Source: Candidatus Nanohalarchaeota archaeon QJJ-7 (lineage in GTDB: Archaea; Nanohalarchaeota; Nanosalinia; Nanosalinales; Nanohalalkaliarchaeaceae). From it: a stretch of DNA of 64,000 nt. The notes beneath the pieces are model-generated. The model searched no databases and had not been told where the DNA came from. It worked only from the letters and a program-made list of their open reading frames with translations. Every line of letters begins with the position of its first letter. Position 1 is the first letter of the stretch. The DNA is taken from positions 334 to 64,333 of the forward strand of contig JALIDP010000001.1 in assembly GCA_022865215.1 (NCBI GenBank), given 5' to 3'. Positions 195 through 22,123 of this stretch are shown in pieces. The position numbers and the translations under genes were made by a program.

Positions 195-286
195 TGAAAC
201 AAGCTCCAGAAATAAAAGAATAGCGACCTACTTATTTGACGCCCACCGGATTTAATGGTTCAGGCGGATTCCTGGGGGGGCTAAAA

Positions 287-1384: not shown

Positions 1385-1428
1385 CCACAGAACTGGATTA
1401 TAAATATTTCTAGCCCTGTACCCCTCTC

Positions 1429-2193: not shown

Positions 2194-2201
2194 AGATTCC
2201 T

Positions 2202-3599: not shown

Positions 3600-3784
3600 A
3601 CCCTTCCTATTCCTATCTCTTTTTTAATTAGATGACGTCCGAACGTTCGGATTCGATGGTTTTATATGGTGTGGCAGGAAATGATGAGTTGCCATGGACC
3701 CCGACAACGATGAGGACAAAAAGGAAGAAGTAAGGAGCATGCTGGGGGACAGAGCAGCTGACCTCCTGGAAGACGAGGACTGAC

Positions 3785-5203: not shown

Positions 5204-5232
5204 GTTACCTCCCTCAGTTTCAAGGAATAAAT

Positions 5233-5387
5233 AGCCGGGGTCGGGATTCGAACCCGAGTAAGCCGCTGTCTGCCGTCCTTCTTCCAGGATCCGAGACGGA
5301 GTCGAGGATGGAACCTGGTGGACCCTTCCAGTGGAAGGGCTTCCTCTACGGCTGCAGGCGGCCACATAACCACTCTGTCACCCCGGC
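5233..5387 (-). tRNA. tRNA-Cys(GCA) with an 84-nt intron at the canonical 37/38 position
   Basis: Folded by hand on the minus strand. Acceptor GCCGGGG/CCCCGGC. 3-bp D stem ACA/TGT. Anticodon stem GCCGC/GCGGC with loop CTGCAG..A (anticodon GCA = 5355-5353). Intron 5351-5268. T arm TCGGG-TTCGAAT-CCCGA. Discriminator U, as expected for Cys. CCA is not encoded. Confidence 0.8.
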
Positions 5388-5429
5388 ACGGAGTGACGGG
5401 TGCGCAGATTGAGCACCGTAAGGTGCGAC

Positions 5430-5444
5430 CTCTGTCACCCCGGC
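5430..5444 (-). repeat. exact 15-nt copy of the tRNA-Cys 5' end (GCCGGGGTGACAGAG), 57 nt upstream of the tRNA copy at 5373-5387
   Basis: Direct comparison of the two 15-mers shows identity. The flanking bases differ on both sides. Confidence 0.9.
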
Positions 5445-5696
5445 CTGCATAGGATAGAATTCCGGAAAACTCGGATATAGAAACGTCTATCGGAGAGAAC
5501 TCAGTTACAACGGGCCGGACAAAAACGTCCACCCTTCATACCACAGTATTCCACGCCGATATTTTAAAAGAGCGACGGTTAATCTTCACGGAAAAACAAA
5601 ACGGCATTATTAGTTCCAAAAGACTCTCTTTCCATGATTTTATGGATATTATAAAAGAATCGATATACGAGAAGATCAGTATAAGAGGTGACCAAG

Positions 5697-5939
5697 ATGA
5701 CAGATCTAGAAGATGAAGATGAACCGATCGAGTTCGAAAATGGACAGAATCCCCCGCCACTGTTCGAGAACGAGGACCACGGCGTGACAGCGTGGGCTGA
5801 AGAAGACAAGAACGGCAACTTCTTCCTCCGGATACGGCTCCCGCTCGGCCTCGGAACCGTCCCGCTGTTCGTCAACGACAGCGGATACGACAACATCCAC
5901 GATGCGTTCAACCGTCTCGTGGAGCATGTCCAGGACTGA
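5697..5939 (+). CDS. small acidic hypothetical protein
   Basis: 80-codon ORF from the ATG at 5697, preceded by AAGAGGTGA. The track begins at GTG 5688. No recognisable motif. A TATA-like ATTATAAAAG lies upstream. Confidence 0.45.
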   Translation: MTDLEDEDEPIEFENGQNPPPLFENEDHGVTAWAEEDKNGNFFLRIRLPLGLGTVPLFVNDSGYDNIHDAFNRLVEHVQD

Positions 5940-5967
5940 AAGGTCGGTATTAGAGGCCTTGTAACAC

Positions 5968-5977
5968 GTTTAAAAGC
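5968..5977 (+). promoter_or_regulatory. TATA box (GTTTAAAAGC) of the SRP RNA gene
   Basis: AT-rich box about 21 nt upstream of the GC-rich RNA. The identical 10-mer sits at the same spacing upstream of tRNA-Val (32792-32801). Confidence 0.6.
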
Positions 5978-5998
5978 TTCCCAGACCAGTTCTCAAGC

Positions 5999-6263
5999 GG
6001 GATAGCCCGGCCGCCTCGGGGACGGCTGTAACCACGAATCCTCGATAGCGGGGGCGAAGCCTCGGGGGCGCGGGACCCTGGCAGGTCGGCCCGTGCCCGG
6101 ACGTCGACCCGCCGTCCTCCGGGGCCTTCCCTGCGGTGAACCGGGTCAGGCCTTGACGGGAGCAGCCCTAAGCCGTGGTGGTAGGCGTTCGGAGGGTCGC
6201 GGCGGCGAGGAAGGGCCCGGATCACTGCCCTGTCAGGACTCCCGCCACCCTGGGCGTTCCCAC
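5999..6263 (+). ncRNA. signal recognition particle RNA (7S / SRP RNA)
   Basis: GC-rich block without credible coding. It contains the conserved SRP helix-5/8 sequence GGTGAACCGGGTCAGGCC..GACGGGAGCAGCC. The 5' GGGATAGC can pair with the 3' GCGTTCCC. A T-run follows. The ends are approximate (+/-5 nt). Confidence 0.85.
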
Positions 6264-6271
6264 TTCTTTTT
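6264..6271 (+). terminator. oligo-T archaeal terminator after the SRP RNA
   Basis: TTCTTTTT lies immediately after the predicted 3' end of the RNA. Confidence 0.5.
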
Positions 6272-6328
6272 ACCTGGATATCGGAAACCGGCTTTAACGG
6301 TAAAAGGGTTCAGACCAAAAACCTAGGC

Positions 6329-6940
6329 ATGATAGAGCTGAGAGGTACATCCCATATAGCCGGAGAAGACCTGGAGAGTATAGGTAGAGAGGTACAGGAT
6401 AAACAGCCTGATGTAGTAGCAATTGAGCTGGACAGAGTCCGTTTAAAAGCCCTGATGAACGATAAACAGGGAAGGAGGCCTGGAAACCCTTTCTTCCTTT
6501 TCCTCAAGTATATCCAGGAACTTTTAGGAAGACGGACAGGTGTCGCTCCCGGATCCGACATGCTGGAAGCCTTCCGGGCTGCTGAAAAGGAAGGTATCGA
6601 TGTCGCACTGATAGACCAGAACATCGCATTTACACTCCAGAAGCTGAAAGATGCCCCTGTCAGGGAGAAGATCAAGTTTGTGGGCTATATCCTTGTCGCT
6701 CCCCTCATAATGCCGGGTATGAATATCGATCTGGAAAATGTTCCTGGAGAGGAACTGGTAGAAGATATGCTTCTAAGGTTCGAGGTCGGTTTCCCCGAGA
6801 TGTATAACGTCCTAGTAAAGGAGAGGAACCAGATAATGGCGGAACGCCTCATCTCTCTAGAGAAGGAGTACGATGAGGTCCTGGCATTCGTGGGGGCGGG
6901 ACATGTCCAGGGGCTGGAAGATATCCTTCACCGCGCATAA
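6329..6940 (+). CDS. TraB/PrgY (pheromone-shutdown-like) family protein
   Basis: N-terminal [12 protein letters not shown] ... DVVAIELD pattern and C-terminal [11 protein letters not shown], both typical of the TraB family. Confidence 0.7.
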
Positions 6941-6972: not shown

Positions 6973-7452
6973 ATGACTGAGTTCGAGCGGGAGCTCGTCA
7001 ATGCTTTCAACCGGTACTTCGGGGACAGCAACGAGAAGGGTATAGCTTACCGGAGGAAACAGCACCGGTTCTCCTCGCAGTTTGTCGACATCCTGGTAGA
7101 CTCTATACGTCCGGATTTCTACCTGGCTATAGAGAACAAATCTATAAGCACGAATGCAACGAACAAACTCTACTTCTCCCAGCATTTCTCCGAGAGCAAG
7201 GACGGTCACCAGGTGGACAGGATTTCCGAATTTCTACAGAAATCAGGTAGGAAGGGTTTCCTGGCCGTTGAAGTGAAACGGGGAAGAGGCAAACAGAGGA
7301 AAGCTTTCTTCGTACCCTGGAAGAATCTGGAGTATAGATACAGGGAGGGGGAACCAGGTATAGCTATCGATGAACTGGAAGATTTCATGGAGATAGAACG
7401 TACCTCCGATTATTACGACGTCAGACCTGTCTTCGAAGGTGTTACAGCATGA
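6973..7452 (+). CDS. Hjc-like Holliday-junction-resolvase / restriction-endonuclease-fold protein
   Basis: [10 protein letters not shown] ... VDILVD ... LAIENKS ... GFLAVEVK follows the order of Hjc-type nuclease motifs (ExxL, D, E-x-K). The assignment rests on motif order only. Confidence 0.45.
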
Positions 7453-8063
7453 ACATCACCAGAGAACTCAGGGGCCTCGGGATCTCAATCCTCGGTCTGG
7501 GTTTCGCTTTCGCAGTACTCTTTTTCGGAGACAGCAGTCCGCGCTTCCTTTTGCAACCAGAGTTCCTGCCCGCTCTTGTGGTTGCCACAGGACTAGCGGC
7601 AGCCTCTTTCACACCACACGAGGCCATGCACAGGGTCACTGCCCGTGCACTCAACGCTTACGCGGAGTACAGGATTTGGAAACCAGGAGTGGTCCTCGCA
7701 GTGCTCAGCTCGTTCCTCGGAGTTGTCTTCGCCGCGCCAGGGGGAGTTAAGATGCATACGAAGAGGGGAGAGAGATACGGTTACTGGGCTCCCACCCTAG
7801 ATATAGACCAGACAGGGGTTATCGCCGTAGTCGGACCCCTTATCAACGTGATGATCGCCGTTATACTGGCTTTCCTCGCAGGTTCCTACACCATCATGTT
7901 CCAGGGAACGAACCTCTTAACCGTAGGAAGCAACATTAACGCCTTCCTCGCAGTATCCAACCTCCTTCCGTTCTACCCCATGGACGGGTACAAGGTACTC
8001 AGGTGGAACACCTTCATCTGGGCTGTCGTGATAACCCTCTCGATCCTACTCTTCTTCCTCTGA
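7449..8063 (+). CDS. M50-type (site-2 protease-like) membrane metalloprotease
   Basis: Polytopic membrane ORF with HEAMH (HExxH) in a TM segment and [14 protein letters not shown] (the NxxPxxxxDG motif of the S2P family). Confidence 0.7.
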
Positions 8064-8447: not shown

Positions 8448-9734
8448 ATGCCCGAGATCACTGTTGGCAGGGATGACTCCGACCTTGAAGAGTATGGAGA
8501 GGAGTTCGCAACCGCATTCATAGGCAAGCACATCGTCGGGGAGCAACAGGAGGCTCACACTGCCAACCCTCTACATCTCGATATCGCGAGGCCTCACGTT
8601 ATGGGGATATTCGGGAAGAGGGGTACAGGTAAATCCTACACCATGGGCGTACTCGCGGAAGAACTGAAACAGTCGGAAGAGAAGGTGAAAGACAACCTCT
8701 CCACGCTCATGATAGATTCCATGGGGATATTCTGGTCGATGAAGAACCCTAACGAGGATGATGCAGTTATCCTGGACCACTGGGATCTCAACCCCCAACA
8801 GATAGATATCGACCTTTACGTCCCTGAAGGCCATGTTGATACATTCAGGGAGAAGGACATCCAGTTCGACAGGACTTTCGCCATAAAACCCGGGGACCTG
8901 AACCCGGGGGACTGGGCACTCGCCTTCGACCTAGATATCACCGAACCTATGGGTGTACTACTGGAAAGGATAATCAATGATATAAGAGATGACAAAGGGA
9001 AAACATACACAATAGAGAACCTTATAGACTACGCATATAGCCATGACGACTTCGAAGACAACGTTCGTAGAGCGCTGATAAACCGGTTCGAGAGAGCATT
9101 GGACTGGGGGATATTCTCAGTAGACGCTCCCGATGTTGAGGAGCTTACCGGTAGAGGGAACCTTACTGTGTTAGATGTCAGCATGTTCGAGGATCTGAGT
9201 GGTGGCTGGTCAGCAAGGACGCTCATAGTTGGTCTCCTCTCCCGCAAGATCTTGAGGAAGAGGATGGAATCGAAGCGGGTGGAGGAGATAGAGGAGATGG
9301 AAGGCATAAGGACTACAGAGTCTCCTATAGTATGGATGCTTATCGACGAGGCACACCAGTTCGCGCCAGAAGAAGGAGAGACAGCTGCTACGAATCCTCT
9401 CCTCCAGTGGGCGAAGATCGGGAGAGAACCAGGTGTTTCGATGGTGCTCGCAACCCAGCAGCCGAACAAACTGGACTCGCGGATCCTCTCGCAGATGGAC
9501 ATCCTCCTGACCCACCGTCTCACCGCCCAGAACGATATCGATGCCCTGGGCAACATAATGCAGACCTATATGCAGTACGATATCACTGAATACATCGACA
9601 ACCTTCCCAGGCAGGACGGGGCAGGGATAATCCTGGACGACAACTCAGAGCGCGTCTACACGGTCCAGATCAGACCACGTCTCTCCTGGCACGCCGGAGG
9701 AACTCCTTCCGCAGTAAAGCAGGAGAGGACTTGA
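8448..9734 (+). CDS. HerA/FtsK-superfamily P-loop ATPase (DUF87/COG0433-like) without a HAS-barrel
   Basis: Walker A GIFGKRGTGKSYTMG. Walker B WMLIDEAHQFAP. ATQQPNKLDSRILSQMDILLTHRL sensor region. Confidence 0.8.
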   Translation: MPEITVGRDDSDLEEYGEEFATAFIGKHIVGEQQEAHTANPLHLDIARPHVMGIFGKRGTGKSYTMGVLAEELKQSEEKVKDNLSTLMIDSMGIFWSMKNPNEDDAVILDHWDLNPQQIDIDLYVPEGHVDTFREKDIQFDRTFAIKPGDLNPGDWALAFDLDITEPMGVLLERIINDIRDDKGKTYTIENLIDYAYSHDDFEDNVRRALINRFERALDWGIFSVDAPDVEELTGRGNLTVLDVSMFEDLSGGWSARTLIVGLLSRKILRKRMESKRVEEIEEMEGIRTTESPIVWMLIDEAHQFAPEEGETAATNPLLQWAKIGREPGVSMVLATQQPNKLDSRILSQMDILLTHRLTAQNDIDALGNIMQTYMQYDITEYIDNLPRQDGAGIILDDNSERVYTVQIRPRLSWHAGGTPSAVKQERT

Positions 9735-9739
9735 TACCT

Positions 9740-10282
9740 ATGTTTCTGGAGTCCTTGACGTCTGAAATCGTGTTACAAAGGTTCCTCTCGATCTTGCTTT
9801 TCCCTGTAAACAATCCTGAATTCCTGCCATCTCTCATCCCAATATTCCTTGGTCTTGCGGTTATAGAGCTTTACTTCGGCAAGTACTCGTTCGAACAGCT
9901 AGGGTGGAACTCCGCGGTATCGAACGCGGTTCTGATCCTGGCGACCGCTCTGACCCTCATAGTCAGGCTGAATCTCCTAGGTGCACCATCCGGCCCTCGC
10001 TACACGGTAGCGTACGGAGTCCTTTTACTCGGCCTTTTCATCCTTATCATGGACTTCTACCATGTCTGGCCGGCGAGTATTGCGTTCGTTGTATCTTCAG
10101 GATTCGCCACATATACCTCCGTGTATATCTCTATCGCCTGGGTGTATGATGGGCTCCCCTTGGACGCGAATACCTTAGCCGCCTCGGCCCTGTTCATGAT
10201 ATCTTTCTACCTGTTATTCGAAGTTATACAGCACATGGAGGAGGAAGTTCTACCTGAGCAGATATACCGGCCGAGAGATTGA
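9740..10282 (+). CDS. integral membrane protein (5-6 TM)
   Basis: Hydrophobic ORF directly after the ATPase. AGGAGAGGA lies 11 nt upstream of the ATG at 9740. An alternative TTG at 9731 overlaps the ATPase stop. Confidence 0.55.
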   Translation: MFLESLTSEIVLQRFLSILLFPVNNPEFLPSLIPIFLGLAVIELYFGKYSFEQLGWNSAVSNAVLILATALTLIVRLNLLGAPSGPRYTVAYGVLLLGLFILIMDFYHVWPASIAFVVSSGFATYTSVYISIAWVYDGLPLDANTLAASALFMISFYLLFEVIQHMEEEVLPEQIYRPRD

Positions 10283-10313: not shown

Positions 10314-12551
10314 ATGTCGCAGGAAACTCTTCAGGAAGACTCCTTCATCCAGCATCCCCGGATAGTGGAAGGTTCCCTTGAAGCACGCACATACCAGGAG
10401 GTTATCGCCGCGGAGGCCCTCGATCAGAACACCATCGTGGTCCTTCCAACTGGTCTTGGGAAGACTGCCGTCGGGATACTGGTCGCCGCGCAGAGGCTGG
10501 AAGAACGTCCGAACTCGAAGATTCTGATGCTGGCGCCTACGAAGCCTCTAGCCGAGCAGCACAAAAAGGAGTTCTCGCGCTGTCTAGAGATAGATACAGA
10601 CGTCTTCGAAGTATTGACAGGTGAGACAGGTCCGGAGAAGAGGGAAGATATATGGAAGGAAGTGGGTGCCTTCTTCGGCACCCCTCAGACGGTTGAGAAC
10701 GATATCATCAACGGTCGTTTAGACCTATCCGACTTCTCACTGGTCATCTTCGACGAGGTGCACAGGGCGACAGGCGACTATCCCTACAGCTTTATAGCCG
10801 ATAAATACGTGGATTCGTCAGATGATCCGAGGATCCTGGGTCTCACCGCATCACCGGGTGGGGATAGGGAGAAGATCGAGAGGGTCGCGGATAACCTTTA
10901 CGTGGACAACTTCGAGACCAGGACTGAAGACGATGCCGACGTGGAACCCTACGTGGAGGAGAAGGAGACCAACTGGGTCAAAGTCCAGCTGGACCGGAAC
11001 TTCGAGAGGGTGAAGAAGCAGCTGGAAAAGGCAGAGAGGAAGAGGCTCAGCAAGCTGAAAGGGCTCGGACTTCTGGATTCCACTTCCCGGGTTCAGAAGT
11101 CAGACCTGTTGAAGCTGAGAGGTGAGATAGGTTCCAAACTGGGGGAACAGGATGACCCGAAACTATACCAGGGCATGTCACACGTCGCGGCCTGCATGAA
11201 GATAGAGCACGCACTGGAACTTCTTGAGACGCAAGGAGTGAAACCGCTCTACCAGTTCTTCGAGAAGATGGAGAAGGATCCAGGGAGCAAGGCTGCGAAG
11301 AGTCTTCTGGATGACGAGAACTTCAGGAACGCGATGTCCGTGACTGAATGGATGGTGAACAACGGGAAAGAGCACCCGAAACTGGAGGAGCTCGAGAAAC
11401 TTCTGAACGAGAAGATAGAAGACGATAAGAACGCTATAGTCTTCACACAGTACAGGGATACGGTAGATCTCATCCACGAGAAGATGGATGAGAAGGCAGA
11501 TCTGGAACCTGTAAAGTTCAAGGGTCAGAAGGAGAACTTCACGCAGAAGAGGCAGATAGAGATCCTGGACGAGTTCAGGGACGGCGATTACAACATCCTT
11601 GTGAGCACGAGTGTGGGAGAGGAAGGGCTCGACATCCCTTCCGTCGACTACGTGTTCTTCTATGAACCTATTCCTTCAGAGATACGGACCATCCAGAGGC
11701 GTGGTCGTACCGGTCGCCAGGAGAGCGGCGAGATCTACGTCCTTATGGCAGAAGATACCCGGGACGAGGGACATTACTGGAGCGCGAAGCACAAGGAGGA
11801 GAGCATGAAGGAGGTGGTCGAGGACCTGAAGGGGGAGGGTTCGAATGGCGTGGAGGTCGAATCTTCCAAGGAATCGAAGGAGGGACAGAAGACACTGGAC
11901 GGTTTTTCTGGAGGAGAGGAACTCGTCATCATCGCTGACGACCGGGAGAACAAGGTTATGAAGGAACTTTCCCGTAAAGATGTGAAGGTTAGGAGTCAGA
12001 GGCTCGAGGTCGGTGATTTCTTGGTATCCGACCGGGCGGCGGTTGAGAGGAAGAAAGCGGAAGACTTCGTCTCATCTATAATCGACAACAGGCTCTTCCC
12101 CCAGTTGAGGTCTCTGGCAGGCCAGTTCGAGAGGCCTGTCCTCCTCCTGGAAGGAGAAGACCTCCACGGCCACAGGGATATACACCCGAACGCGGTCCGC
12201 GGTGCTCTCTCCTCCGCGGTCCTGGACTTCGACATCCCGGTGCTCTGGAGTTCAGGGCTCGAGGAGACCTCAGAGCTTCTCATCTCTCTGGCGAGGAGGG
12301 AACAGGAGGACCAGGACAGGAGCGTTGACCTGAGAGGTGAGAGGAGTCCGAAGACAGAGAAAGAGCTTCAGGAATACCTTGTCGCAGGACTTCCGAAAGT
12401 TTCGAACACCCTGGCGGAAAGGCTTCTGGAACGCTTCGGCAGTGTAAAAGAAGTTTTCTCAGCCTCCGAGACCGATCTGAAGGACGTGGAGGGGATAGGT
12501 GAGGAGAAGGCTTCTAGGATAGTGGACATCCTGGGGAGGGAGTACGAGTGA
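10314..12551 (+). CDS. hef: Hef: FANCM-like helicase fused to an XPF/ERCC4 nuclease and HhH2
   Basis: Helicase motifs VLPTGLGKT, DEVH, TASPG and QRRGRTGR. C-terminal ERCC4 nuclease motif GDFLVSDRAAVERK. (HhH)2 region LPKVSNTLAERLLERFGSVKEVFSAS...GIGEEKASRI. Confidence 0.9.
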   Translation: MSQETLQEDSFIQHPRIVEGSLEARTYQEVIAAEALDQNTIVVLPTGLGKTAVGILVAAQRLEERPNSKILMLAPTKPLAEQHKKEFSRCLEIDTDVFEVLTGETGPEKREDIWKEVGAFFGTPQTVENDIINGRLDLSDFSLVIFDEVHRATGDYPYSFIADKYVDSSDDPRILGLTASPGGDREKIERVADNLYVDNFETRTEDDADVEPYVEEKETNWVKVQLDRNFERVKKQLEKAERKRLSKLKGLGLLDSTSRVQKSDLLKLRGEIGSKLGEQDDPKLYQGMSHVAACMKIEHALELLETQGVKPLYQFFEKMEKDPGSKAAKSLLDDENFRNAMSVTEWMVNNGKEHPKLEELEKLLNEKIEDDKNAIVFTQYRDTVDLIHEKMDEKADLEPVKFKGQKENFTQKRQIEILDEFRDGDYNILVSTSVGEEGLDIPSVDYVFFYEPIPSEIRTIQRRGRTGRQESGEIYVLMAEDTRDEGHYWSAKHKEESMKEVVEDLKGEGSNGVEVESSKESKEGQKTLDGFSGGEELVIIADDRENKVMKELSRKDVKVRSQRLEVGDFLVSDRAAVERKKAEDFVSSIIDNRLFPQLRSLAGQFERPVLLLEGEDLHGHRDIHPNAVRGALSSAVLDFDIPVLWSSGLEETSELLISLARREQEDQDRSVDLRGERSPKTEKELQEYLVAGLPKVSNTLAERLLERFGSVKEVFSASETDLKDVEGIGEEKASRIVDILGREYE

Positions 12552-13615
12552 CCAGGAATGAACTCGTGATCGTCGGGATCGACCCCGGAACTACCTCTGC
12601 TGCCGGTTTAATGAGTCTGGACGGGGAACTGGTGAACTATACAAGCAGGAGAGAGTTCTCGAAGGACCGGATAATACAGTTCATCGTGGAAAACGGTAAG
12701 CCTCTTATCGTGGCTTCAGACGTCTTTCCTGCACCTTCTCTCGTGGAAGAGATAGCTTCCAACACCGGTTCGGTACTCCTCTCGCCTGATAGAGACCTGG
12801 AAGCAGATTACAAGGACAGGCTCGTTTCAGATCTCGGTGTGGAAGGAGAGGACTCTCATATCAGGGATGCGCTCGCATCGGCAGAGTATGCCAGGAGAGA
12901 GTACGAGGACAAGCTGGAAGAGATAGAGAAAAGGGTAAGAGAGGAAGGGGTGTGGGAAGACATGGAAGATGTTGTAGAGCTGGTTATCAAAGGCTCACTA
13001 TCTATATCTCAGGCCGTTAAAGAGGTCAAAAAGGTCGACCCAGGGGCAGAAGAACCGGGGGAAGAAAAGGTCGATAGAGACTGGGAGAGGATAGCTGAGA
13101 AACGTAAAGACCGGATAGACCTTCTTGAGGGAAAAATAGATAATCTGGAGAAGTATATCGGGGAGGATGATGAAGATGAAGGAGATAGCCCGGTATTACC
13201 AGAAGAACTGGAGAAGAGGAACCGGACCATCCAGGAGCTCAGAGAAGAGCTGGAGCTGAAATCTGCGGAGAACGATCGGCTGAAAGAGGAGATAGATAGA
13301 CTCAGGGAAGGTATCCGGAGGCTGGACGAGGGATGGGTAAAAGTGCCTAAGGTGGAAAAATTAGCAGATTCAGGCCAGGAGGCTGTATACGTGGAAAGCT
13401 ACAGTGGAGGAGAGATATCCGGAGAGGTAAAGAAGGTGATAAGCCCCAAATACCACGAGGAACTCTCAGATAAAGGGATCCTGTCTATCCTTGTGGGAGA
13501 AGTCGAAAGGAAAGTTGATACAGGAGACTCTTACATCGTTCATCCAGAAGAGCTCGAAACAGAAGAAGATACTGAGGGGTTCATGGAATGGCTAGAGAGC
13601 TACCAGCAGAGGTGA
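12548..13615 (+). CDS. DUF460/COG2433-like protein (RNase H-fold N-terminus plus coiled coil)
   Basis: N-terminus VIVGIDPGTTSAAGLMSLDGE...IVASDV resembles RuvC/RNase H-like DUF460 proteins. The central part is a long E/K/R coiled coil. The GTG start overlaps the hef stop (GTGA). Confidence 0.55.
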   Translation: MTRNELVIVGIDPGTTSAAGLMSLDGELVNYTSRREFSKDRIIQFIVENGKPLIVASDVFPAPSLVEEIASNTGSVLLSPDRDLEADYKDRLVSDLGVEGEDSHIRDALASAEYARREYEDKLEEIEKRVREEGVWEDMEDVVELVIKGSLSISQAVKEVKKVDPGAEEPGEEKVDRDWERIAEKRKDRIDLLEGKIDNLEKYIGEDDEDEGDSPVLPEELEKRNRTIQELREELELKSAENDRLKEEIDRLREGIRRLDEGWVKVPKVEKLADSGQEAVYVESYSGGEISGEVKKVISPKYHEELSDKGILSILVGEVERKVDTGDSYIVHPEELETEEDTEGFMEWLESYQQR

Positions 13616-14184
13616 AAGAGAAGTTTCAGGACTACCGGGAAGAATACAGGGAGTTGATCGAAGGGATGAACAGCCGCCAGGAAGGGCTCTATAGCGCCCT
13701 CATCTTCCTGGTAAAATTCAGTTTGCTAGCCGCCCCTTTCTACATCGTCCTGGGAACGGGATGGGAACTGGAAGGATTGAGAGCCTGGAACGCACACGCT
13801 TCCGCCTACATCCTAGAAATTATCGGTATCGATGCCTCATCCACAGGTAGTTTTGTCCTTACAGGGGACATGGTTCTCGATGTCACCTGGGACAGCACTG
13901 CATGGAAATCGGCAGCAGTCTTTATAGGACTTATATTAGCTTCTCCAGGCCGTCTCGGTGCAAAGATGAAAGGGATCCTACTAGGAATCCCTATACTCCT
14001 GGGAGTGAACCTCCTGAGGATATCCTCGATGGTCTACGCTGTACGGGTTCTGGGTCTCGACTACGAGTTCATCCACACCTTCCTCTGGAGATGGGGTCTC
14101 ACGGTCGCTGTACTTGCATCCTGGCTCCTTTGGTGGTATCGAACAGATATATCACGGCGAATCCGGAAAATAGGGAGATTATAG
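13588..14184 (+). CDS. exosortase/archaeosortase-family (EpsH-like) membrane protein lacking any cysteine
   Basis: Polytopic membrane ORF with the family order of motifs: VTWDSTAWKSAAVFIGL (position of CSGxRS), GVNLLRIS (NxxR) and FIHTFLWRWG (His motif). The protein contains no Cys residue. Confidence 0.55.
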   Translation: MARELPAEVKEKFQDYREEYRELIEGMNSRQEGLYSALIFLVKFSLLAAPFYIVLGTGWELEGLRAWNAHASAYILEIIGIDASSTGSFVLTGDMVLDVTWDSTAWKSAAVFIGLILASPGRLGAKMKGILLGIPILLGVNLLRISSMVYAVRVLGLDYEFIHTFLWRWGLTVAVLASWLLWWYRTDISRRIRKIGRL

Positions 14185-14221: not shown

Positions 14222-16222
14222 ATGGCAGATTCTGAAGAAGAAAGATCAGTAGAGGAGATAGTCAGTGAACTAGAATCCCGGATCGATACCCTGGAAGACA
14301 AAGTGATGATGGAACGTCTGGAGGACCTCGCCCTGGAGGATAAGCTAAAGATCGTGCAGGATCTGGTCGAGAGAGATGAGGAAACAGTCAAGGAAAAGCT
14401 GGAGATGCTAGACCAGATCGAAGAGGAGTACGAGGAGACACAGGTGGAAGAGAAGCTCCAGTATCTCTACAAAGAGCTGAAATCTCTCAAGAGTAATGTG
14501 GAGGAACTGAGCGAGGGACAGGTCCAAGAAGACGATTTGAACGAGTTAAGGGGACGTATAGACCGCCTGCAATCTAGGCTGGATGAAGAGAGTGGAACCG
14601 ATGAGGAGGAACTCGATGATATATACGATAAAATCTACACCCTCAGGGACAGATTGAAAGAACTGACCGAGGAAATGGAGGAGTCAGAATACAGTCTTTC
14701 AGATTCCGAGATCGACGATCTAGTCAGCAAGGTCGAATCTCGCGTAGATACAGGAGATTCGGACGGTTCAGATGCTTCAGCTATAGAGATAAAAGAAGAA
14801 GTTCTTGAAGAGATAGATACTTCATATGTCTCCGAGAAGGCATTAGATGATCTGAGGGAAGAAATAAACAGTCTCAGCAGCAGGATAGATACTCACGAAG
14901 AACTGGAGGATGGTGGAGATATACTGGGGGATGTCCGTTCCCGTATCGCCGAGCTAGAAGATAAGGTGGAGGAACTTGAAAACTCTGGCCTAGAGGGGTC
15001 CGGAGATACCTCCGATATAGATTCTGGGGCGATCGAGGAACTGCGGAGCGAGCTGGAAGAACTCCAGGATGAGATCTCAGAATCAGCGAAAGAAGACCTT
15101 AAGGCGGAGATAGAAGCCATTAAGGAGAAAGTAGAAGAACACGATGAACGGCTTTCCGGCGATATAACACCGGAAATCAGGGAAGACCTCAGTGAAACAC
15201 AGGAAAGGGTTGAAGCTATCCAGCAGTCCCTGGAAGAAGAGATATCACATCTGAAAGAGGAAGATATCCAGCCCCTGAAAGAACGGCTTGAAGATGTAGA
15301 AACAGAAGATATAGACGATATAGAAGACCGTATAGACGAGATAAACGAAAGGGCTGATGATATAGAGGAGAGGCTTGAGATCAATGCCGATGAACTCCTT
15401 GAAGCACTCGAATATAACGGAGACGAGCTTGAGGACCGGTTCAAAAATATACTGGTCCAGATAGAACAACTCAGGGAGATGATCGGACGTCAAGGAGAAC
15501 GTATAGACAGTCTCAGCCACGCCCAGAACATATTCGAGAGCAATATCGGCGGGATGATGCAGGAGCACCGGGATTTTACAGAGCAGCTCCAGAGGGAGGA
15601 CAGGAAGCTCGATAGGAAGACCGATCTGCTTCTAGAGGCATTGGAAGAGGGTATAGATATAGAAGCCGAAGAACTGAAAGAAAAGATAGAGGATCACAAA
15701 GATAGGGTCTATATCCGAAGGAAGGAATTCAAAGAGGCTATGCAACAGGAACTGGAACAGCTCGAAGAGGAGATAGAGGCCGGCCAGTTAGGATTAGATA
15801 GACAGACAGACCTGCTTCTGGAAGCCCTAGAGAACGTTGTCGAGGAAGGAGACGTGGATACGCGTCTGGAGCAGGACATAGAGCAAGTTGCTTTCCAGAG
15901 TGATGCAGGCCTCGAGAGGGTAAAGGAGAAGATCTCAGAGATGCAGGGCGAACAGGAGGCCGAATCATTGGACCACGAAAGGAGGGTGGATATGCTTGTG
16001 GAAGCTATAGAAGAAGTTATAACGAAACAAGGAGAAGAGATAGAGGAACTGAAAAGAAGTAAAAACCTGGAACTTCCTGATGACCGGAGGGAGGAGCTAG
16101 GTATAGAGGAAAGAGATATAGATGCGATAGCCGAGATAGCTGCCCGGAACCAGGAGAGGGTACAGGAACTCCAGGAGAAGCTGGAGGACATGGAGAGACA
16201 CGCCCCTACCATCGTTGAATGA
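14222..16222 (+). CDS. very acidic coiled-coil protein, 666 aa
   Basis: Continuous ORF of E/D/L/K/R heptad-like sequence. Internal repeats include DRKTDLLLEALEEG, DRQTDLLLEALENV and ERRVDMLVEAIEEV. No enzymatic motif. Confidence 0.7.
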   Translation: MADSEEERSVEEIVSELESRIDTLEDKVMMERLEDLALEDKLKIVQDLVERDEETVKEKLEMLDQIEEEYEETQVEEKLQYLYKELKSLKSNVEELSEGQVQEDDLNELRGRIDRLQSRLDEESGTDEEELDDIYDKIYTLRDRLKELTEEMEESEYSLSDSEIDDLVSKVESRVDTGDSDGSDASAIEIKEEVLEEIDTSYVSEKALDDLREEINSLSSRIDTHEELEDGGDILGDVRSRIAELEDKVEELENSGLEGSGDTSDIDSGAIEELRSELEELQDEISESAKEDLKAEIEAIKEKVEEHDERLSGDITPEIREDLSETQERVEAIQQSLEEEISHLKEEDIQPLKERLEDVETEDIDDIEDRIDEINERADDIEERLEINADELLEALEYNGDELEDRFKNILVQIEQLREMIGRQGERIDSLSHAQNIFESNIGGMMQEHRDFTEQLQREDRKLDRKTDLLLEALEEGIDIEAEELKEKIEDHKDRVYIRRKEFKEAMQQELEQLEEEIEAGQLGLDRQTDLLLEALENVVEEGDVDTRLEQDIEQVAFQSDAGLERVKEKISEMQGEQEAESLDHERRVDMLVEAIEEVITKQGEEIEELKRSKNLELPDDRREELGIEERDIDAIAEIAARNQERVQELQEKLEDMERHAPTIVE

Positions 16223-16531: not shown

Positions 16532-17506
16532 CTAAATCAACTGTAGAACCACGAAATAGACAGGATCACCTAAAAGGATCAGCAGGAGAAGAGCGACAGG
16601 GAAGACGGGTACGAACCTCACTCCGGTCCTAACCTTGACCTCCTCTCTCATTTCCCCCAGTTCCTGGACTTGTTCTGATGTAAGACCTGCCACCCTTCCC
16701 CCTTCACTACCGAAGCCTGGAATTTCGAAGGGTAAAGGAGATAGAATCCTGTCTAATATCTTATCAGTGAGACCTTCTATGGGGTCTTCACGGACGTTCT
16801 GGAGCTCTATATCTTCTGCAAGGACGTCTCCCTCTTCCAGTTTGTCTACAGGTATCTTCGACTGCATCGCCCTCGATTCCACAGTCCTCAAGAAAAGAGA
16901 GAGAACGAGGAAACCTGTAAGAACTAATATGAACGCAGCTAGATTACTGACCACTGTCTTCAATGGCGGCGATACTACTGTATATACTGCAAAAGTTCCT
17001 GCAACCATCATCCCCGTAAAAAGGACTATTATCCTGGAATAGTGGTGACGACGCGTCTCGAACTCTTCCTCTAAAGCGGTAAGGAAATCCCCGTGACGTG
17101 AAGCCACATATACCGCATATGAAACACTATAGACTGATCCAACGAGGAAAACCGTCATCAAGAAGGAGAACTGTTCAGGCCATGGCGCACTGTAAACCGG
17201 TTCGAAAGCCGCCACCAGTGCGGGCAACGAGAAGCCTGCAGCCCCGAGTACGAAGGCATCCGCTCCTCCCCACATCCCGGTAAGGTACAGCAGCCATCCG
17301 AAGACGAACAACCCTATACCAGATGCCAGAGAAGCAGCCAAAGGGTCTGGGGAACCGGAAATAAAACTCCTGTAACCATGGAAAAACAGGGCTCCCCCTC
17401 CTATGACGAGTGAGACAGAGTCAGGAACCTCAGTGGTTTCCAGGTCATGGTAGGCTGCATAGGAGAGACCCCCAAGGACGAACACAGCGAACACTTCCAC
17501 CAGCAT
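16532..17506 (-). CDS. archaeal prepilin/preflagellin peptidase (A24 family, PibD/FlaK-like) with extra domain
   Basis: Polytopic membrane protein with two catalytic Asp contexts, AAYHDLETTEVPD and MWGGADAFVLG. It lies divergently next to a pilus operon. Confidence 0.75.
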   Translation of the reverse strand: MLVEVFAVFVLGGLSYAAYHDLETTEVPDSVSLVIGGGALFFHGYRSFISGSPDPLAASLASGIGLFVFGWLLYLTGMWGGADAFVLGAAGFSLPALVAAFEPVYSAPWPEQFSFLMTVFLVGSVYSVSYAVYVASRHGDFLTALEEEFETRRHHYSRIIVLFTGMMVAGTFAVYTVVSPPLKTVVSNLAAFILVLTGFLVLSLFLRTVESRAMQSKIPVDKLEEGDVLAEDIELQNVREDPIEGLTDKILDRILSPLPFEIPGFGSEGGRVAGLTSEQVQELGEMREEVKVRTGVRFVPVFPVALLLLILLGDPVYFVVLQLI

Positions 17507-17581
17507 GTAACTGCCTAGACTCCGGAACTTTTTATCACAACCGTCCGAAGAAGTATAAATGAGGATAGTGAAGGTTTCAAT

Positions 17582-18259
17582 ATGGTAGAGGGCTCTCTTA
17601 TAGAGACAGGGGTGGACAGACTCCTGAACTATGTACAGGATAACGGTAAAGTCGAGCTGAAAGAGGCTTCGAAGGCTCTAGGCGTTGAAAGGGATACAGC
17701 TATGAAATGGGCTTCCGCCCTGGAAGATTCAGGACTCCTGGAGATCCGTTACTCCGTAAGAAGAGGAAGGATACTAGTCCCGATGGAAGGAGAGGTTACG
17801 GAAGAGAAAGTGGAGGAGGCCCGTCAGGAAACTGCTGATGAGATATCTGAAAGAGGTATCCTGGAAAGGGAAGAGTCTGAACTTGAGCAGTATAAAGATA
17901 TGCTTGAAACTGTGGAGGAAAGCCTGAAGGAAGACGAGAAAGAAGCTGAGGATCTGAAATCCGAGCTTGAAGGGGGAAACCTCCAGAGGTTGCGGGGATA
18001 TCTCGAAGAACTTCAGGAAACGGAGAGCGAGATCGAAGAGATAGAATCCGATATCGAGGATATCCTGGCGTCTCTCAGGGTCCTGGAAAAGATGGAGGAA
18101 GAATCCGTAAAGGAGCCTAATAGCGAGCGAAGAGGTCTTAAATACAGGATAAAGTCCCTATTCTCGGGGAAAAACCGAACTTTCAAATGTGAGGAGTGCG
18201 GGAGAGAGTTTGACACGGAACGCGGGTTAAAGACCCATCAGGGGATGATCCATGACTGA
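17582..18259 (+). CDS. winged-helix, coiled-coil and C-terminal C2H2 zinc-finger protein
   Basis: N-terminus VELKEASKALGVERDTAMKWASALEDSGLLEI (wHTH-like). Acidic coiled coil. C-terminus FKCEECGREFDTERGLKTHQGMIH (C-x2-C-x12-H-x4-H). Confidence 0.6.
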   Translation: MVEGSLIETGVDRLLNYVQDNGKVELKEASKALGVERDTAMKWASALEDSGLLEIRYSVRRGRILVPMEGEVTEEKVEEARQETADEISERGILEREESELEQYKDMLETVEESLKEDEKEAEDLKSELEGGNLQRLRGYLEELQETESEIEEIESDIEDILASLRVLEKMEEESVKEPNSERRGLKYRIKSLFSGKNRTFKCEECGREFDTERGLKTHQGMIHD

Positions 18260-19757
18260 AGAGATCGACAGCTACGAGGTGGTATCGGACAAGGTACCTG
18301 CACAGATAACTATAGAGAGAACTGAAGACGAATATGTGCCGGTCTACGAGGTGGATAGACCTAAGACAGAAGAGGCGACGCAGGCCCTCCTCTCGAACGT
18401 CCGGCAGGAGCTTACTTCAACGGTCCAGCTATCATCGAAAGAGTTCATAGATCCTGGAGAGCTGGAAGAAGTAAAAGAAAAGTTTGAGGATAAAGCGGAT
18501 GAGATTCTGGAAGATGAACTCCCCTCCCTGGACGCGGACGAGCGGCAGATAGTGGTCGGAAACCTCCTGCACGAGATGCTCGGACTTGGAGATATCGAGA
18601 TCGTTCTGGACGACGATAACCTTGAGGAAGTGGTGGTCAACGGTGCACAGGAGCCTCTCTGGGTCTACCACAAGGAGCAGGGCTGGCTGAAGACCAATAT
18701 CGCGTTCGAATCCGACGAGGATATCCGGAACAAGGCCTCGGTGGTGGCGAGGAGAGTGGGAAAGCAGATATCTTCACTCCACCCTCTCCTGGATGCGCAC
18801 CTCCCTTCAGGTGACAGGACCAACGCTACCATCTTCCCTATATCGACAGAAGGTAACACCATAACAATCAGGAAGTTCGCACGGAGCCCGTGGACCATCA
18901 CCGATTTCATAGAGAACAACACGCTAAACAAGGATATATCTGCGCTTCTATGGATGGCTATCCAGTACGAGATGAACATAATAATCTCAGGAGGTACAGG
19001 TTCAGGTAAGACCTCACTGCTCAACGTCCTCACTCCATTCATACCCCCCAATCACCGTATCGTGTCCATCGAAGATACCCGGGAGATCTCACTTCCAGAG
19101 TTCCTGCACTGGGTACCTCTCACGACTCGAGAACCCAACCCTGAAGGGAAAGGCGGGGTTTCCATGCTTGACCTACTAGTCAACTCTCTCAGGATGCGCC
19201 CTGACAGGATAATCGTGGGAGAGATAAGGAGAGAAAGGCAGGCAGAAGTACTTTTCGAGGCTATGCATACAGGCCACTCAGTATATTCCACACTCCACGC
19301 GGACACAGCGGAGCAGACTATCAGGAGGTTAATCAACCCGCCGATAAACGTTCCGGAAACCCTGATGGAATCCGTAGACCTGAACGTGGTCATGTTCCGT
19401 GACCGGCAGAAGAACATCAGGAGGGCTATGCAGGTCTCAGAAGTTATGGCCGAACACCGCGGAGGGGAGACCGACATCTCGCCCAACGTTATCTACCGAT
19501 GGAGGTCTTCAGATGACGAGATCGTGAAGCAGAACCCGAGTTCGAAAATGTTCGACCAGCTTAAAATGCATACAGGTCTCTCGGACAGCGGGATAGAAGA
19601 AGGTCTTGAGGATCGGAAACAGGTACTCGACTGGATGCTGGAGCATGAAGTGAATAACGTCGACAGAGTGGGCAAGGTCATCGCAGAGTTCTATAAGGAC
19701 CAGGACAAGATAATAGATGCGGTAAAAGACGGTGAAGAACCGGAAAACGTGCTGTAA
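18252..19757 (+). CDS. type IV pilus/archaellum-type secretion ATPase (PilB/FlaI/TadA family)
   Basis: Walker A SGGTGSGKTSLLN. Asp box and Walker B RPDRIIVGEIRRE. His box TGHSVYSTLHA. Confidence 0.9.
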   Translation: MTEEIDSYEVVSDKVPAQITIERTEDEYVPVYEVDRPKTEEATQALLSNVRQELTSTVQLSSKEFIDPGELEEVKEKFEDKADEILEDELPSLDADERQIVVGNLLHEMLGLGDIEIVLDDDNLEEVVVNGAQEPLWVYHKEQGWLKTNIAFESDEDIRNKASVVARRVGKQISSLHPLLDAHLPSGDRTNATIFPISTEGNTITIRKFARSPWTITDFIENNTLNKDISALLWMAIQYEMNIIISGGTGSGKTSLLNVLTPFIPPNHRIVSIEDTREISLPEFLHWVPLTTREPNPEGKGGVSMLDLLVNSLRMRPDRIIVGEIRRERQAEVLFEAMHTGHSVYSTLHADTAEQTIRRLINPPINVPETLMESVDLNVVMFRDRQKNIRRAMQVSEVMAEHRGGETDISPNVIYRWRSSDDEIVKQNPSSKMFDQLKMHTGLSDSGIEEGLEDRKQVLDWMLEHEVNNVDRVGKVIAEFYKDQDKIIDAVKDGEEPENVL

Positions 19758-19775
19758 AAAAGTTGGTACAGTGTC

Positions 19776-20618
19776 ATGAAAGACAAAATCAGCGAACCGT
19801 TTCTCCCTGCGGCCGAGCGGTTGACATCCCTCTTCCCGGACATGGAAAGGAAGCTCCTACAGGCACAGATGGATACCACTCCAGTACGCCATCTCGCTGA
19901 ATCGGTAGTTATGGGGATCGGAACCATGATATTCTTCGGATCGATATTCGTCATACTCGGGAGCAACTTCGGGACAACATCACTCCTCAGGCTCTCAGTT
20001 CTCATAGCGCCTGCTGCAGGCGTCCTGGGATTTCTAATCTACGCAAAGTATCCCGACATGAAAGCAAGGAGAAGAGTCCAAAAATTGGAGCGCGACCTCC
20101 CTTACGCACTACGTCACCTCCTGATAGAGGTCCAGTCCGGTATGAACCTTTACGAGGCTATGGTCTCGATATCTGAAGGTTACGGAGAGGCCTCGGTGGA
20201 GTTCCAGCGGATAGTCAAAGACATAAACGCAGGGGTTTCGGAGATGGAAGCTTTGGAAAAGGCAGTTATAAGGAACCCCTCTCTCCAGTTTCGTCGTTCA
20301 CTCTGGCAGATGATAAACACTATCAAGGCAGGATCTGACCTGGGTAACACCCTAGAATCCCTGGTTGACGCGATAATGACGCAGCAGATGACTGAAGTGA
20401 AACGGTACGGACAGGAACTCAACCCATACATACTCTTCTACCTCATAGTTGCAGTCATCGTACCTTCTCTTGGAGCGTCATTCCTCGTCATCTTCTCAAC
20501 ATTCACAGGGGGTAATGTCTCCAAGCCGATGTTCTACATGATACTGGTATCTATAATCGGATTCCAGATAATGTTCCTCCAGGTGGTACGGACCAAGCGT
20601 CCGGAGGTGAAGATCTGA
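19776..20618 (+). CDS. T2SF-domain membrane protein (TadB/EpdJ-like half of a FlaJ/PilC platform)
   Basis: Single T2SSF-like domain (LPYALRHLLIEVQSGMNLYEAM...) with flanking TM helices. It follows the ATPase. Confidence 0.75.
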   Translation: MKDKISEPFLPAAERLTSLFPDMERKLLQAQMDTTPVRHLAESVVMGIGTMIFFGSIFVILGSNFGTTSLLRLSVLIAPAAGVLGFLIYAKYPDMKARRRVQKLERDLPYALRHLLIEVQSGMNLYEAMVSISEGYGEASVEFQRIVKDINAGVSEMEALEKAVIRNPSLQFRRSLWQMINTIKAGSDLGNTLESLVDAIMTQQMTEVKRYGQELNPYILFYLIVAVIVPSLGASFLVIFSTFTGGNVSKPMFYMILVSIIGFQIMFLQVVRTKRPEVKI

Positions 20619-21571
20619 TGCACCTGCTGGAGAGGCTGGCATCAATACTTCCACAGAGTTACTTGGATAGTATAGAGAAACAGGCCTATTACGCCCATTT
20701 CCCGGGTTACAGGGATACGACTTCACTGATACTGGTGATCGGGACTCTCGCAATCTTGGCGACTGCTTTCCTCCTTCCAGTATCGAACGCTATCAGGGCA
20801 TTGGTAGCTCTCGGAGGATTCGTAATCGTGGCAGCGTTCCCCTATATCCTCTTCTCACTTATGGCGGAAAGGAGACGCCGAGCAATCGAGAACGTGTTAC
20901 CTGACGCCCTGTTGCTCATCAGCGCGAACATAGAGTCAGGTCTCACCGTTGACAAGGCATTCCTGGTCAGTGCGAGGGACGAGTTCGGTCCTCTAGCAGA
21001 TGATATCCGTCTCACCGCGATGAAGATGTTCGGCGGGATGCCTGTGGAAGAAGCACTGGATGAACTGGCGGAGTCGACCAATTCCGAGCTCTTCGAAGAG
21101 ACCCTGAAACTCCTGGTAGATGGTATAAGTTCTGGAGGTGAGGTTTCCAGCCTCCTGGAGAGTTCAGCTAACGATATCCGCACATCGCTACAGCTCAGGG
21201 AGGAGATAGCGACCAACGTCCGGATGTACTCCATGTTCATAATGATAGCCGCAGTCGTTGGAGCACCTCTCCTCTTCGGAGTCTCCACCTACCTGACAGA
21301 AACTACATCGCAGCTCTGGGCTTCCGCGGATGTCGGGGGCGTCCCCTCTCAAGGGTTCGTCTCTCTGAGCGAGCCTGAGATCGATATCGAGTTCTTCAGA
21401 CAGTTCGCGATGGCAGCGATAGCTATAACCAACATCTTTGCAGCTCTCCTCATGTCTGAGATAAAGCGCGGTAGCATGAAGGAAGGACTGAAGAAAGTCC
21501 CTCTGTTCGTCATCGTTTCTCTTGGAATCTTTTACGCCAGTCTGAAAGTGATAGTGATATTCCTAGGCTAG
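20618..21571 (+). CDS. T2SF-domain membrane protein (TadC/EpdK-like second half)
   Basis: Second single T2SSF-like domain (LPDALLLISANIESGLTVDKAF...). The ATG overlaps the previous stop (TGATG). Confidence 0.75.
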   Translation: MHLLERLASILPQSYLDSIEKQAYYAHFPGYRDTTSLILVIGTLAILATAFLLPVSNAIRALVALGGFVIVAAFPYILFSLMAERRRRAIENVLPDALLLISANIESGLTVDKAFLVSARDEFGPLADDIRLTAMKMFGGMPVEEALDELAESTNSELFEETLKLLVDGISSGGEVSSLLESSANDIRTSLQLREEIATNVRMYSMFIMIAAVVGAPLLFGVSTYLTETTSQLWASADVGGVPSQGFVSLSEPEIDIEFFRQFAMAAIAITNIFAALLMSEIKRGSMKEGLKKVPLFVIVSLGIFYASLKVIVIFLG

Positions 21572-21611
21572 CATTACTTATTTAAACTAGCCGAAAAGAA
21601 ATAGGGCTTGT

Positions 21612-22070
21612 ATGAGACGCGGACAAGTATCTGTAGAGTACCTAGCAATCTTTGGCCTGGTACTTCTGGCGATCGTAGGTGCCGTGTCCTTCATCTCGGG
21701 TACGGGTTTCCTGAACCCGTGTCAGGCTACGACCCCGAGCTTCACAGGACAGCCTTTCACCCTTGAGGAGGTAAGGTTCACCGGCACCAACGAGATCACC
21801 GCCAGTGTCAGCGCGACCACGCAGGACCTCAACAACGTGGGAATCCGGGTTGACACAGACGGTGACGGCGCATCCGAACATGACAGCACTAATGTCGTCT
21901 CTTCACTGAGCGCTGGTGCCTCTGGTGACACGATCACGCTTTCCACCGGAGATGCATTTGCCAGTGGAGAGTGTGCGAGTGTGACATTCGGGGTCAACTA
22001 CTCGACCGAGGACATCACACAGGAATCGGTCGCATGGGGCTCCACATCACTCACCCGCACAGCGCCGTAA
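21612..22070 (+). CDS. archaeal type IV pilin-like protein (class III signal peptide, DUF361 motif)
   Basis: N-terminus MRRGQVSVEYLAIFGLVLLAIVGAV: basic residues, G/Q cleavage context, then a hydrophobic helix. Confidence 0.75.
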   Translation: MRRGQVSVEYLAIFGLVLLAIVGAVSFISGTGFLNPCQATTPSFTGQPFTLEEVRFTGTNEITASVSATTQDLNNVGIRVDTDGDGASEHDSTNVVSSLSAGASGDTITLSTGDAFASGECASVTFGVNYSTEDITQESVAWGSTSLTRTAP

Positions 22071-22123
22071 GGAGACCTCCCCCACAGGCCACTGATTTAA
22101 GTGAGTAGCTGTAATCAGGGCCT

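Follow-up and report, generated by a model that had tools for sequence, protein, structure and literature searches.

A minimal archaeosortase/exosortase-family protein of a nanohaloarchaeon carries serine in place of the catalytic cysteine

Analysis of a 64,000-nucleotide stretch of DNA from Candidatus Nanohalarchaeota archaeon QJJ-7, a tiny halophilic symbiont (this whole stretch is referred to below as the window) revealed an archaeosortase/exosortase-family gene at positions 13588..14184 of the forward strand. Its 198-amino-acid product carries serine at the position of the catalytic cysteine. The protein is identical to an entry of the QJJ-7 metagenome-assembled genome (MAG) at NCBI, where it is annotated as "archaeosortase/exosortase family protein"; this MAG originates from the study PMC9563170. 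The open reading frame (ORF) was confirmed to encode 198 amino acids and no cysteine at all, as claimed in an earlier reading of the sequence (the original prediction). The lack of cysteine is unremarkable by itself because the proteome of the window is poor in this residue. Cysteine accounts for 0.56% of the residues of the window proteins, 23 of the 65 ORFs of at least 100 amino acids are free of it, and at this frequency a protein of 198 amino acids would contain none with a probability of approximately 0.33. What counts is the single catalytic position. The codons at positions 13894-13911 (AGC ACT GCA TGG AAA TCG) encode S-T-A-W-K-S, which forms part of the active-site motif T100-W-D102-S103-T104-A-W106-K107-S108 (13885..13911, forward strand), the counterpart of C-[ST]-G-x-[RK]-S. 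The AGC codon of S103 (13894-13896, forward strand) occupies the column of the catalytic cysteine. The conserved asparagine and arginine are located in N141-L-L-R144 (14008..14019, forward strand), and the conserved histidine, H163 (14074..14076, forward strand), begins the motif H-T-F-L-W-R-W-G.

Searches with profile models verified that the protein belongs to the proposed family. It scored above the curated cutoffs of PF09721 (Exosortase_EpsH; 28.5 bits versus 25.7), which was its only Pfam match, and of NCBIfam TIGR04178, the exosortase/archaeosortase signature (42.6 bits versus 23). The Pfam scan gave no match of the window protein to a rhomboid profile. The cutoffs of the models for XrtH (TIGR04177; 48.3 bits versus 86), ArtB (TIGR04144; 42.3 versus 150), XrtX (NF046081; 41.9 versus 170), pacearchaeosortase (NF033505; 17.8 versus 80), ArtE (TIGR04124; 26.3 versus 95), and ArtA (TIGR04125; 24.1 versus 75) were not reached. 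All 54 sampled relatives passed TIGR04178, and no named subfamily was strongly matched by any of these 54 (best E value, approximately 1e-17; best E value with the ArtE model, 2.4e-11). The relatives that carry a name were from Nanohaloarchaeota, Aenigmarchaeota, or a "DPANN group archaeon." Judged by these profile scores and alignments, the window protein is a member of an unnamed DPANN-wide group of predicted minimal enzymes of approximately 165 to 215 amino acids with four transmembrane (TM) helices, and the motif of this subfamily is D-[C/S]-T-G-W-K-S. Of the defining features of the superfamily, the profile scores, the predicted polytopic topology with an outward-facing active site, and the conserved Arg and His were found in the protein. 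The exception is the catalytic cysteine, which is part of the definition of the exosortase/archaeosortase superfamily (PF09721, TIGR04178, MEROPS C106) and is replaced by serine at the aligned position. Because of this replacement, the window protein is to be regarded as a superfamily homolog and not to be filed as a cysteine peptidase.

The distribution of residues at the catalytic position was studied in a broad sample of relatives. The ten closest homologs were combined into a profile, and a search of 1.84 billion representative proteins with it yielded 2250 relatives at an E value of ≤1e-3. The best 150 of the 2250 relatives, together with the first matches, were aligned with MAFFT (158 sequences), and this alignment was later enlarged to 234 sequences. 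The column of S103 contained 121 cysteines and 37 serines in the 158-sequence alignment; in the 234-sequence alignment it contained 140 cysteines, 94 serines, and no other residue, with a Ser:Cys ratio that is biased since the sample was gathered with a profile of Ser forms. Both alignments therefore place STAWKS at the catalytic motif, as had been predicted. R144 was present in 234 of 234 sequences, and N141 and H163 were each present in 232 of 234; the assignment of NLLRIS and FIHTFLWRWG to the conserved Arg and His motifs in the original prediction was thus correct. The alignment to a hidden Markov model (HMM) of the family with hmmalign, which had been suggested as a check of the catalytic residue, gave the same register: the bacterial protein P0243, named "Transmembrane exosortase," aligned its cysteine to S103. 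Most Cys forms contain exactly one cysteine, and it is located in this column. Distant members read A-C-T-G-Y-R-S and bridge the subfamily to the textbook motif C-S-G-x-R-S, in which S103 corresponds to Cys, K107 to Arg, and S108 to Ser. The residues flanking the nucleophile differed between the two forms. The background [ST]100-x-D102-S/C-T104-[GA]-W106-K107 was kept in 93 of 94 Ser forms but in 29 of 140 Cys forms, and position 107 was always Lys in the Ser forms, whereas Arg was tolerated in the Cys forms.

A confident structural model of the protein was obtained with AlphaFold2 (predicted local distance difference test score [pLDDT], 85.9; predicted template modeling score [pTM], 0.74). 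The model consists of a cytoplasmic N-terminal helix, the first TM helix, an outer helix with a three-stranded sheet (residues 57-104), and three more TM helices. The predicted topology has the N terminus and the basic C-terminal tail inside and the loop 57-104 outside. The family-averaged net charge was +3.7 for the N terminus, +2.7 for loop 119-127, and +3.0 for the C-terminal tail, compared with -2.5 for loop 57-104 and -0.5 for loop 153-160. On the basis of this positive-inside charge pattern, S103, R144, and H163 are predicted to lie at the outer membrane face, with N141-L-L-R144 close to where the third TM helix reaches the outside and H163 at the outer start of the last one. This prediction agrees with the description of the ArtA active site as "extracellular" (PMC9263693). 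A sequence search of the PDB for a solved structure of the fold gave one chance match only, and a Foldseek search against the PDB returned nothing below E = 0.4.

Comparison of the gene with its relatives in other genomes revealed conserved synteny. A scan of one genome per species, with a locus-scan pattern that was derived from a narrower alignment and picks up close relatives only, yielded 16 loci, nearly all of them labeled Nanohaloarchaeota; other loci were fetched by exact protein. The nanohaloarchaeal loci share the order DUF87/HerA-like ATPase, small membrane protein, Hef, DUF460 protein, sortase-like gene, and long coiled-coil protein. The slot of the sortase-like gene is occupied by a gene with DSTxWKS in 17 nanohaloarchaeal loci and by a gene with DCLGWKS in 3 (L018 to L020). 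Since the Ser and Cys genes are found in the same syntenic slot, they are orthologs and not paralogs. One of the three Cys-type loci, L018 (JBLGBK010000005.1), is titled "MAG: Colwellia polaris" and carries the DUF87, membrane protein, Hef, and sortase block; no DUF460 gene was detected in the approximately 1 kb between Hef and the sortase gene of this locus. The contig was probably misbinned into a bacterial MAG, because it carries the nanohaloarchaeal block and its Hef groups with those of Nanohaloarchaea.

The Cys loci use TGY for the nucleophile and most Ser loci use TCN, and the window shares AGC with three close relatives; the serine codons in the loci examined are TCA, TCC, TCG, TCT, or AGC. 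Both serine codon classes thus occur at the nucleophile position within one phylum, with TGY in the sister clade. The history of the change was traced with a neighbor-joining tree of the linked Hef proteins (rooted with two other DPANN Hefs; 200 bootstraps). In this tree, the nanohaloarchaeal Ser group was monophyletic (0.99) and the Cys clade was its sister (1.0). The AGC clade was also monophyletic (1.0) and was nested among TCN lineages, the monophyly of TCN having a value of 0.17. The simplest history within the Nanohaloarchaeota, as suggested by codons and tree, would be a single change from Cys (TGY) to Ser (TCN) and a later change from TCN to AGC in the lineage of the window. The latter requires two base changes, and its single-step intermediates encode Thr or Cys. 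Brenner's "tale of two serines" reportedly describes how one class of serine codons can give way to the other by way of Cys or Thr, of which these orthologs would be a clean living example. In rough neighbor-joining trees of the whole subfamily, the root was Cys and approximately 8 to 12 changes to Ser were counted, and separate Ser clades were present in the Aenigmarchaeota. Since these trees are noisy, "several independent origins" is the safe statement on Ser. In pairwise comparisons at 40 to 50% protein identity, synonymous sites are saturated. The question whether the homologs without the cysteine form a clade, raised in the original prediction, is thus answered positively within the Nanohaloarchaeota, with further independent Ser clades in the Aenigmarchaeota and other DPANN.

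The sequences were also searched for potential substrates. No PGF-CTERM-like tail was found in the window, and neither the window ORFs nor the regions flanking the related nanohaloarchaeal loci contained a motif-TM-basic C-terminal signal, which agrees with the earlier statement that no obvious PGF-CTERM-type substrate is encoded next to the gene. When every ORF in the window and in the first 26 loci was scanned for a C-terminal hydrophobic segment, only polytopic membrane proteins emerged. The ORF at 1429-2193, with an "LLPEF...TM" tail, was rejected as a substrate: 14 residues separate its PEF from the helix, a further TM helix is located at the N terminus, and no basic tail follows. The coiled-coil protein encoded downstream was rejected as a canonical substrate on the grounds that it contains neither a signal peptide nor a TM helix and that the predicted position of the active site is on the outer face. 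In locus L023, a 3707-amino-acid protein (1-5555) with a single C-terminal TM helix, ending ATPGLSNIGILLIGLIGALFVYKGLA, is encoded approximately 1.4 kb upstream of a Cys-type gene of the subfamily, and three small ORFs lie between the two genes. This protein is a candidate classical substrate, and its TM tail suggests that classical substrates may exist for the subfamily.

The genes around the window gene belong to the conserved block described above. The block starts with a HerA-like DUF87 ATPase gene (8448-9734, forward strand), which overlaps the gene for a 183-amino-acid polytopic membrane protein without a family match (9731-10282, forward strand). This pair is kept upstream of Hef in most nanohaloarchaeal loci. 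A second DUF87-type protein of 694 amino acids is encoded at 30704-32788. Just upstream of the block, at 7449-8063, a 204-amino-acid membrane protein with an M50/site-2-protease-like C-terminal motif is encoded, and similar genes are found in L005, L011, L018, L020, and L024. In Methanococcus maripaludis, the transformation-defective hits likewise included an M50 peptidase (PMC10133366). The conserved upstream neighbor Hef (10314..12551, forward strand), a helicase/ERCC4 nuclease, was assigned by Pfam domains and synteny. It is followed by the DUF460 gene (12548..13615, forward strand; PF04312, 109 bits), whose product consists of an RNase H-like nuclease fold and, after it, a coiled coil. The fold of DUF460 has been described as RNase H-like and resolvase related (PMC3985635). 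In the window, the last 28 nucleotides of the DUF460 gene are shared with the start of the sortase gene, and the overlapping pair is kept in Nanohaloarchaeota and Aenigmarchaeota. Hef or DUF460 was located directly upstream of the sortase gene in 5 of 7 nonnanohaloarchaeal loci. An extension of the pairing to Euryarchaeota was considered, and the pairing was absent from three contexts inspected. No exosortase gene was found next to DUF460 in the contexts examined from Haloplanus, Archaeoglobaceae, and Woesearchaeota. The link between DUF460 and the sortase gene is therefore limited to part of DPANN, since the euryarchaeal and woesearchaeal DUF460 genes examined have no adjacent exosortase gene. 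In the Woesearchaeota contig L029, the DUF460 gene instead overlaps a gene of the lipoprotein diacylglyceryl transferase (LGT) family.

The conserved downstream partner is a 666-amino-acid coiled-coil protein (14222..16222, forward strand). It is acidic (34% Asp plus Glu), and no signal peptide, TM helix, or other hydrophobic segment was found in it, as the original prediction had stated with respect to its acidity and the missing TM anchor. Scans against NCBIfam and Pfam revealed only coiled-coil-type similarity of these coiled-coil proteins to the arms of SMC and Rad50. The extreme C terminus is kept across DPANN phyla: it is P-T-I-V-E in the window (16205-16219), PIILE in L021, PIIIE in L023, PLILE in L024 and L026, and PTVVD/H in other Nanohaloarchaea. 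When the ORFs of 150 or more amino acids in the loci then under comparison were screened, a C-terminal P-x-[IVL]-[IVL]-[EDH] was restricted to the coiled-coil neighbor (15 loci). The partners in relatives were found at 8530-9870 in L021, 8624-10522 in L023, 7671-9653 in L024, 7541-8431 in L026, and 4821-6443 (reverse strand) in L030. In L030 the gene has been shifted to the other strand, at a distance of 1.5 kb, and its product still ends with PVVVE. In the Cys-type nanohaloarchaeal loci L019 and L020, the coiled-coil protein ends with ..DITIIS instead. A possible origin of the coiled-coil protein as the split-off C-terminal half of the long euryarchaeal DUF460 proteins was rejected, since those end like the window DUF460 protein (..EYRxxR).

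Beyond the coiled-coil gene, a gene for a prepilin peptidase of family A24 with the archaeal C-terminal domain (16532..17506, reverse strand) is located, which recurs at this place in several DPANN loci; type IV pilus genes likewise follow in several loci. Among the relatives, A24 was called in L023 and L030, and similar N-terminal sequences without a call were found in L001 and L024. In the window this gene is part of a type IV pilus locus (16532-26650) that also comprises genes for a T2SSE ATPase (18252-19757) and two T2SSF proteins (19776-21571). The region 21612-23433 encodes four small proteins whose N termini resemble class III signal peptides (for example, MRRGQVSVEY.. and MRKGQVALEY..), and two larger proteins with an N-terminal TM helix come next.

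The original prediction had left two explanations for the serine, a variant with a serine nucleophile and a noncatalytic paralog. The first is favored because the column contains only Cys or Ser, the other catalytic residues are invariant or nearly so, and the flanking motif is stricter in the Ser forms. In our assessment, the window protein is a genuine member of the unnamed DPANN-wide minimal subfamily; in its lineage the catalytic Cys has been exchanged for Ser, and the enzyme probably still works. From these conservation patterns, we infer both the catalytic competence of the serine and its chemistry. S103, at the outer membrane face, would attack a peptide bond in a substrate that is secreted or held in the membrane, which would give an oxy-ester acyl-enzyme, where the canonical enzymes form a thioester. 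H163 or K107 would act as the general base, while R144 and N141 might bind the substrate or stabilize the transition state. The acyl-enzyme would then be resolved by water or a lipid amine, as in the ArtA model, where the amine of archaetidylethanolamine resolves a thioester intermediate (PMC7157517). Several points weigh against an active serine enzyme. The activity of each Ser form is deduced from sequence patterns, and the profile used to collect the relatives was derived from Ser forms, which biases their Ser:Cys ratio. The 64-kb window and the flanking DNA of 20 related nanohaloarchaeal loci yielded no substrate with a tripartite signal, and a second, Cys-bearing family member or the substrates may be encoded elsewhere in the genome, beyond the 64-kb window. 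Serine is also a poorer nucleophile than cysteine, and an oxy-ester is less readily aminolysed than a thioester; the reaction may consequently have changed, with only hydrolysis left. If, on the other hand, the Ser form had lost its peptidase activity altogether and survived as a scaffold or substrate-binding protein, this would fit the description of the family as Cys dependent (MEROPS C106; Cys/Arg/His triad; essential Cys173 of ArtA), the fact that no substrate was found in the window and related flanks, and the cytoplasmic nature of the proteins encoded by the conserved neighbors. Such a pseudoenzyme is nevertheless very unlikely. The column never contains Ala, Gly, or Thr in 234 sequences, and Arg, His, and Asn stay invariant or nearly so. 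Ser originated repeatedly and has been retained across deep divergences, and the retention of the flanking motif (93 of 94 versus 29 of 140) points to a tighter constraint on the active site in the Ser forms, which is the opposite of pseudoenzyme decay. This strictness would be expected if Ser needed a more exact environment or could replace Cys only on a permissive background. The idea of a noncatalytic paralog is further weakened by the orthology of the gene with Cys-bearing genes of this slot, in which it is the sole copy, and by the finding that the 64-kb window contains no second member of the exosortase/archaeosortase family. An error of sequencing or assembly, or a miscalled frame, could in principle produce an apparent Ser codon, as single-base errors occur in MAGs and the window matches one. 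This reading is refuted and its probability is negligible: Ser is found at this position in 94 independent sequences from many assemblies, and the different codons among the loci demonstrate that it is not one shared error.

The conserved neighborhood allows a further, unlikely reading that concerns the role of the subfamily, whether Cys or Ser type. The protein might be the membrane enzyme of an undescribed three-gene module with the DUF460 protein and the coiled-coil protein and not an enzyme of classical sorting. Positioned between the genes for Hef and the HerA-like ATPase and those of the type IV pilus, the module would form a membrane-tethered apparatus for the uptake or processing of foreign DNA in host-dependent archaea. 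This reading is supported by the overlap of the DUF460 and sortase genes in two phyla, by Hef or DUF460 directly upstream in most of the nonnanohaloarchaeal loci, by the P-x-[IVL]-[IVL]-[EDH]-tailed protein that accompanies the sortase gene even after rearrangement, and by the adjacent A24 peptidase and pilus genes. It is also in line with results from M. maripaludis, the sole functional evidence for a small archaeosortase without a known signal, where natural transformation requires ArtE, type IV pili, and nucleases and is abolished by deletion of artE, which can be complemented in trans (PMC10133366). Against it, the prediction puts the active site on the outside, whereas the DUF460 and coiled-coil proteins have no signal peptide, and DUF460 is not found beside an exosortase gene in Haloplanus, Archaeoglobaceae, and Woesearchaeota. 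Moreover, the window protein does not qualify as an ArtE (26 bits versus a cutoff of 95), the ArtE phenotype may be indirect, via a processed pilus or surface protein, and gene order in reduced genomes can persist without a functional link. If the module reading were true, it would provide a mechanistic context for the ArtE requirement in Methanococcus natural transformation. The neighborhood of DUF460, sortase, and coiled-coil genes is a concrete lead to the role of these DPANN enzymes.

The active serine enzyme, as the preferred reading, would extend the current description of the family. In the literature, exosortases and archaeosortases are described as Cys proteases or transpeptidases with "nearly perfect" conservation of a Cys/Arg/His triad, which was deduced from this conservation and from ArtA mutants. 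No description of Ser-type exosortases was found in the literature searched, and the top-ranked nanohaloarchaeal papers contained no mention of "exosortase." Orthologs with Cys (TGY), Ser (TCN), or Ser (AGC) and an otherwise intact protein represent a natural experiment, which suggests that the exosortase/archaeosortase fold can run on either nucleophile. If serine is the nucleophile, the intermediate should be an oxy-ester and the enzyme should withstand thiol reagents, and the covarying residues [ST]100, D102, T104, and K107 are defined candidate requirements for the activation of serine. The change has consequences for annotation as well: pipelines label the Ser proteins as "archaeosortase/exosortase family protein" without flagging it, and searches for sorting signals that assume Cys enzymes would miss the Ser forms.

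Comparison of the window protein with known systems revealed both shared and distinct features. ArtA from Haloferax volcanii (HVO_0915; TIGR04125; MEROPS C106) belongs to the same superfamily and is likewise polytopic, with the nucleophile, Arg, and His at the outer face (PMC7157517, PMC9263693). ArtA is larger and uses Cys173, and its known substrates are PGF-CTERM proteins, among them the S-layer glycoprotein, whereas no PGF-CTERM protein is encoded near the window gene. Compared with the ArtA-type motif C-S-G-x-R-S, the window motif S-T-A-W-K-S has Ser for Cys and Lys for Arg. XrtH, ArtB, XrtX, and pacearchaeosortase are similar in size (profiles of approximately 150 to 170 amino acids), share the same core, and include the best subfamily scores; the DPANN group differs from these minimal enzymes in its own motif and its own gene neighborhood. 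ArtE from M. maripaludis (MMJJ_17200) is a small archaeosortase-family protein without a known sorting signal and is a weak match to the window protein. Its link to type IV pili and nucleases echoes the nuclease/pilus neighborhood of the window. Sortase A of Gram-positive bacteria (Cys-His-Arg) uses the same residue types as the canonical exosortases and performs transpeptidation through an acyl-enzyme, but it differs in its unrelated fold, single-anchor topology, and Cys nucleophile. Rhombosortase, a Ser intramembrane protease of the rhomboid family, processes GlyGly-CTERM proteins and is tied to attachment to an ethanolamine-containing lipid. It is an analog of the window protein by chemistry only, as its fold and family are unrelated; its Ser nucleophile indicates that serine chemistry can serve a sorting-type task.

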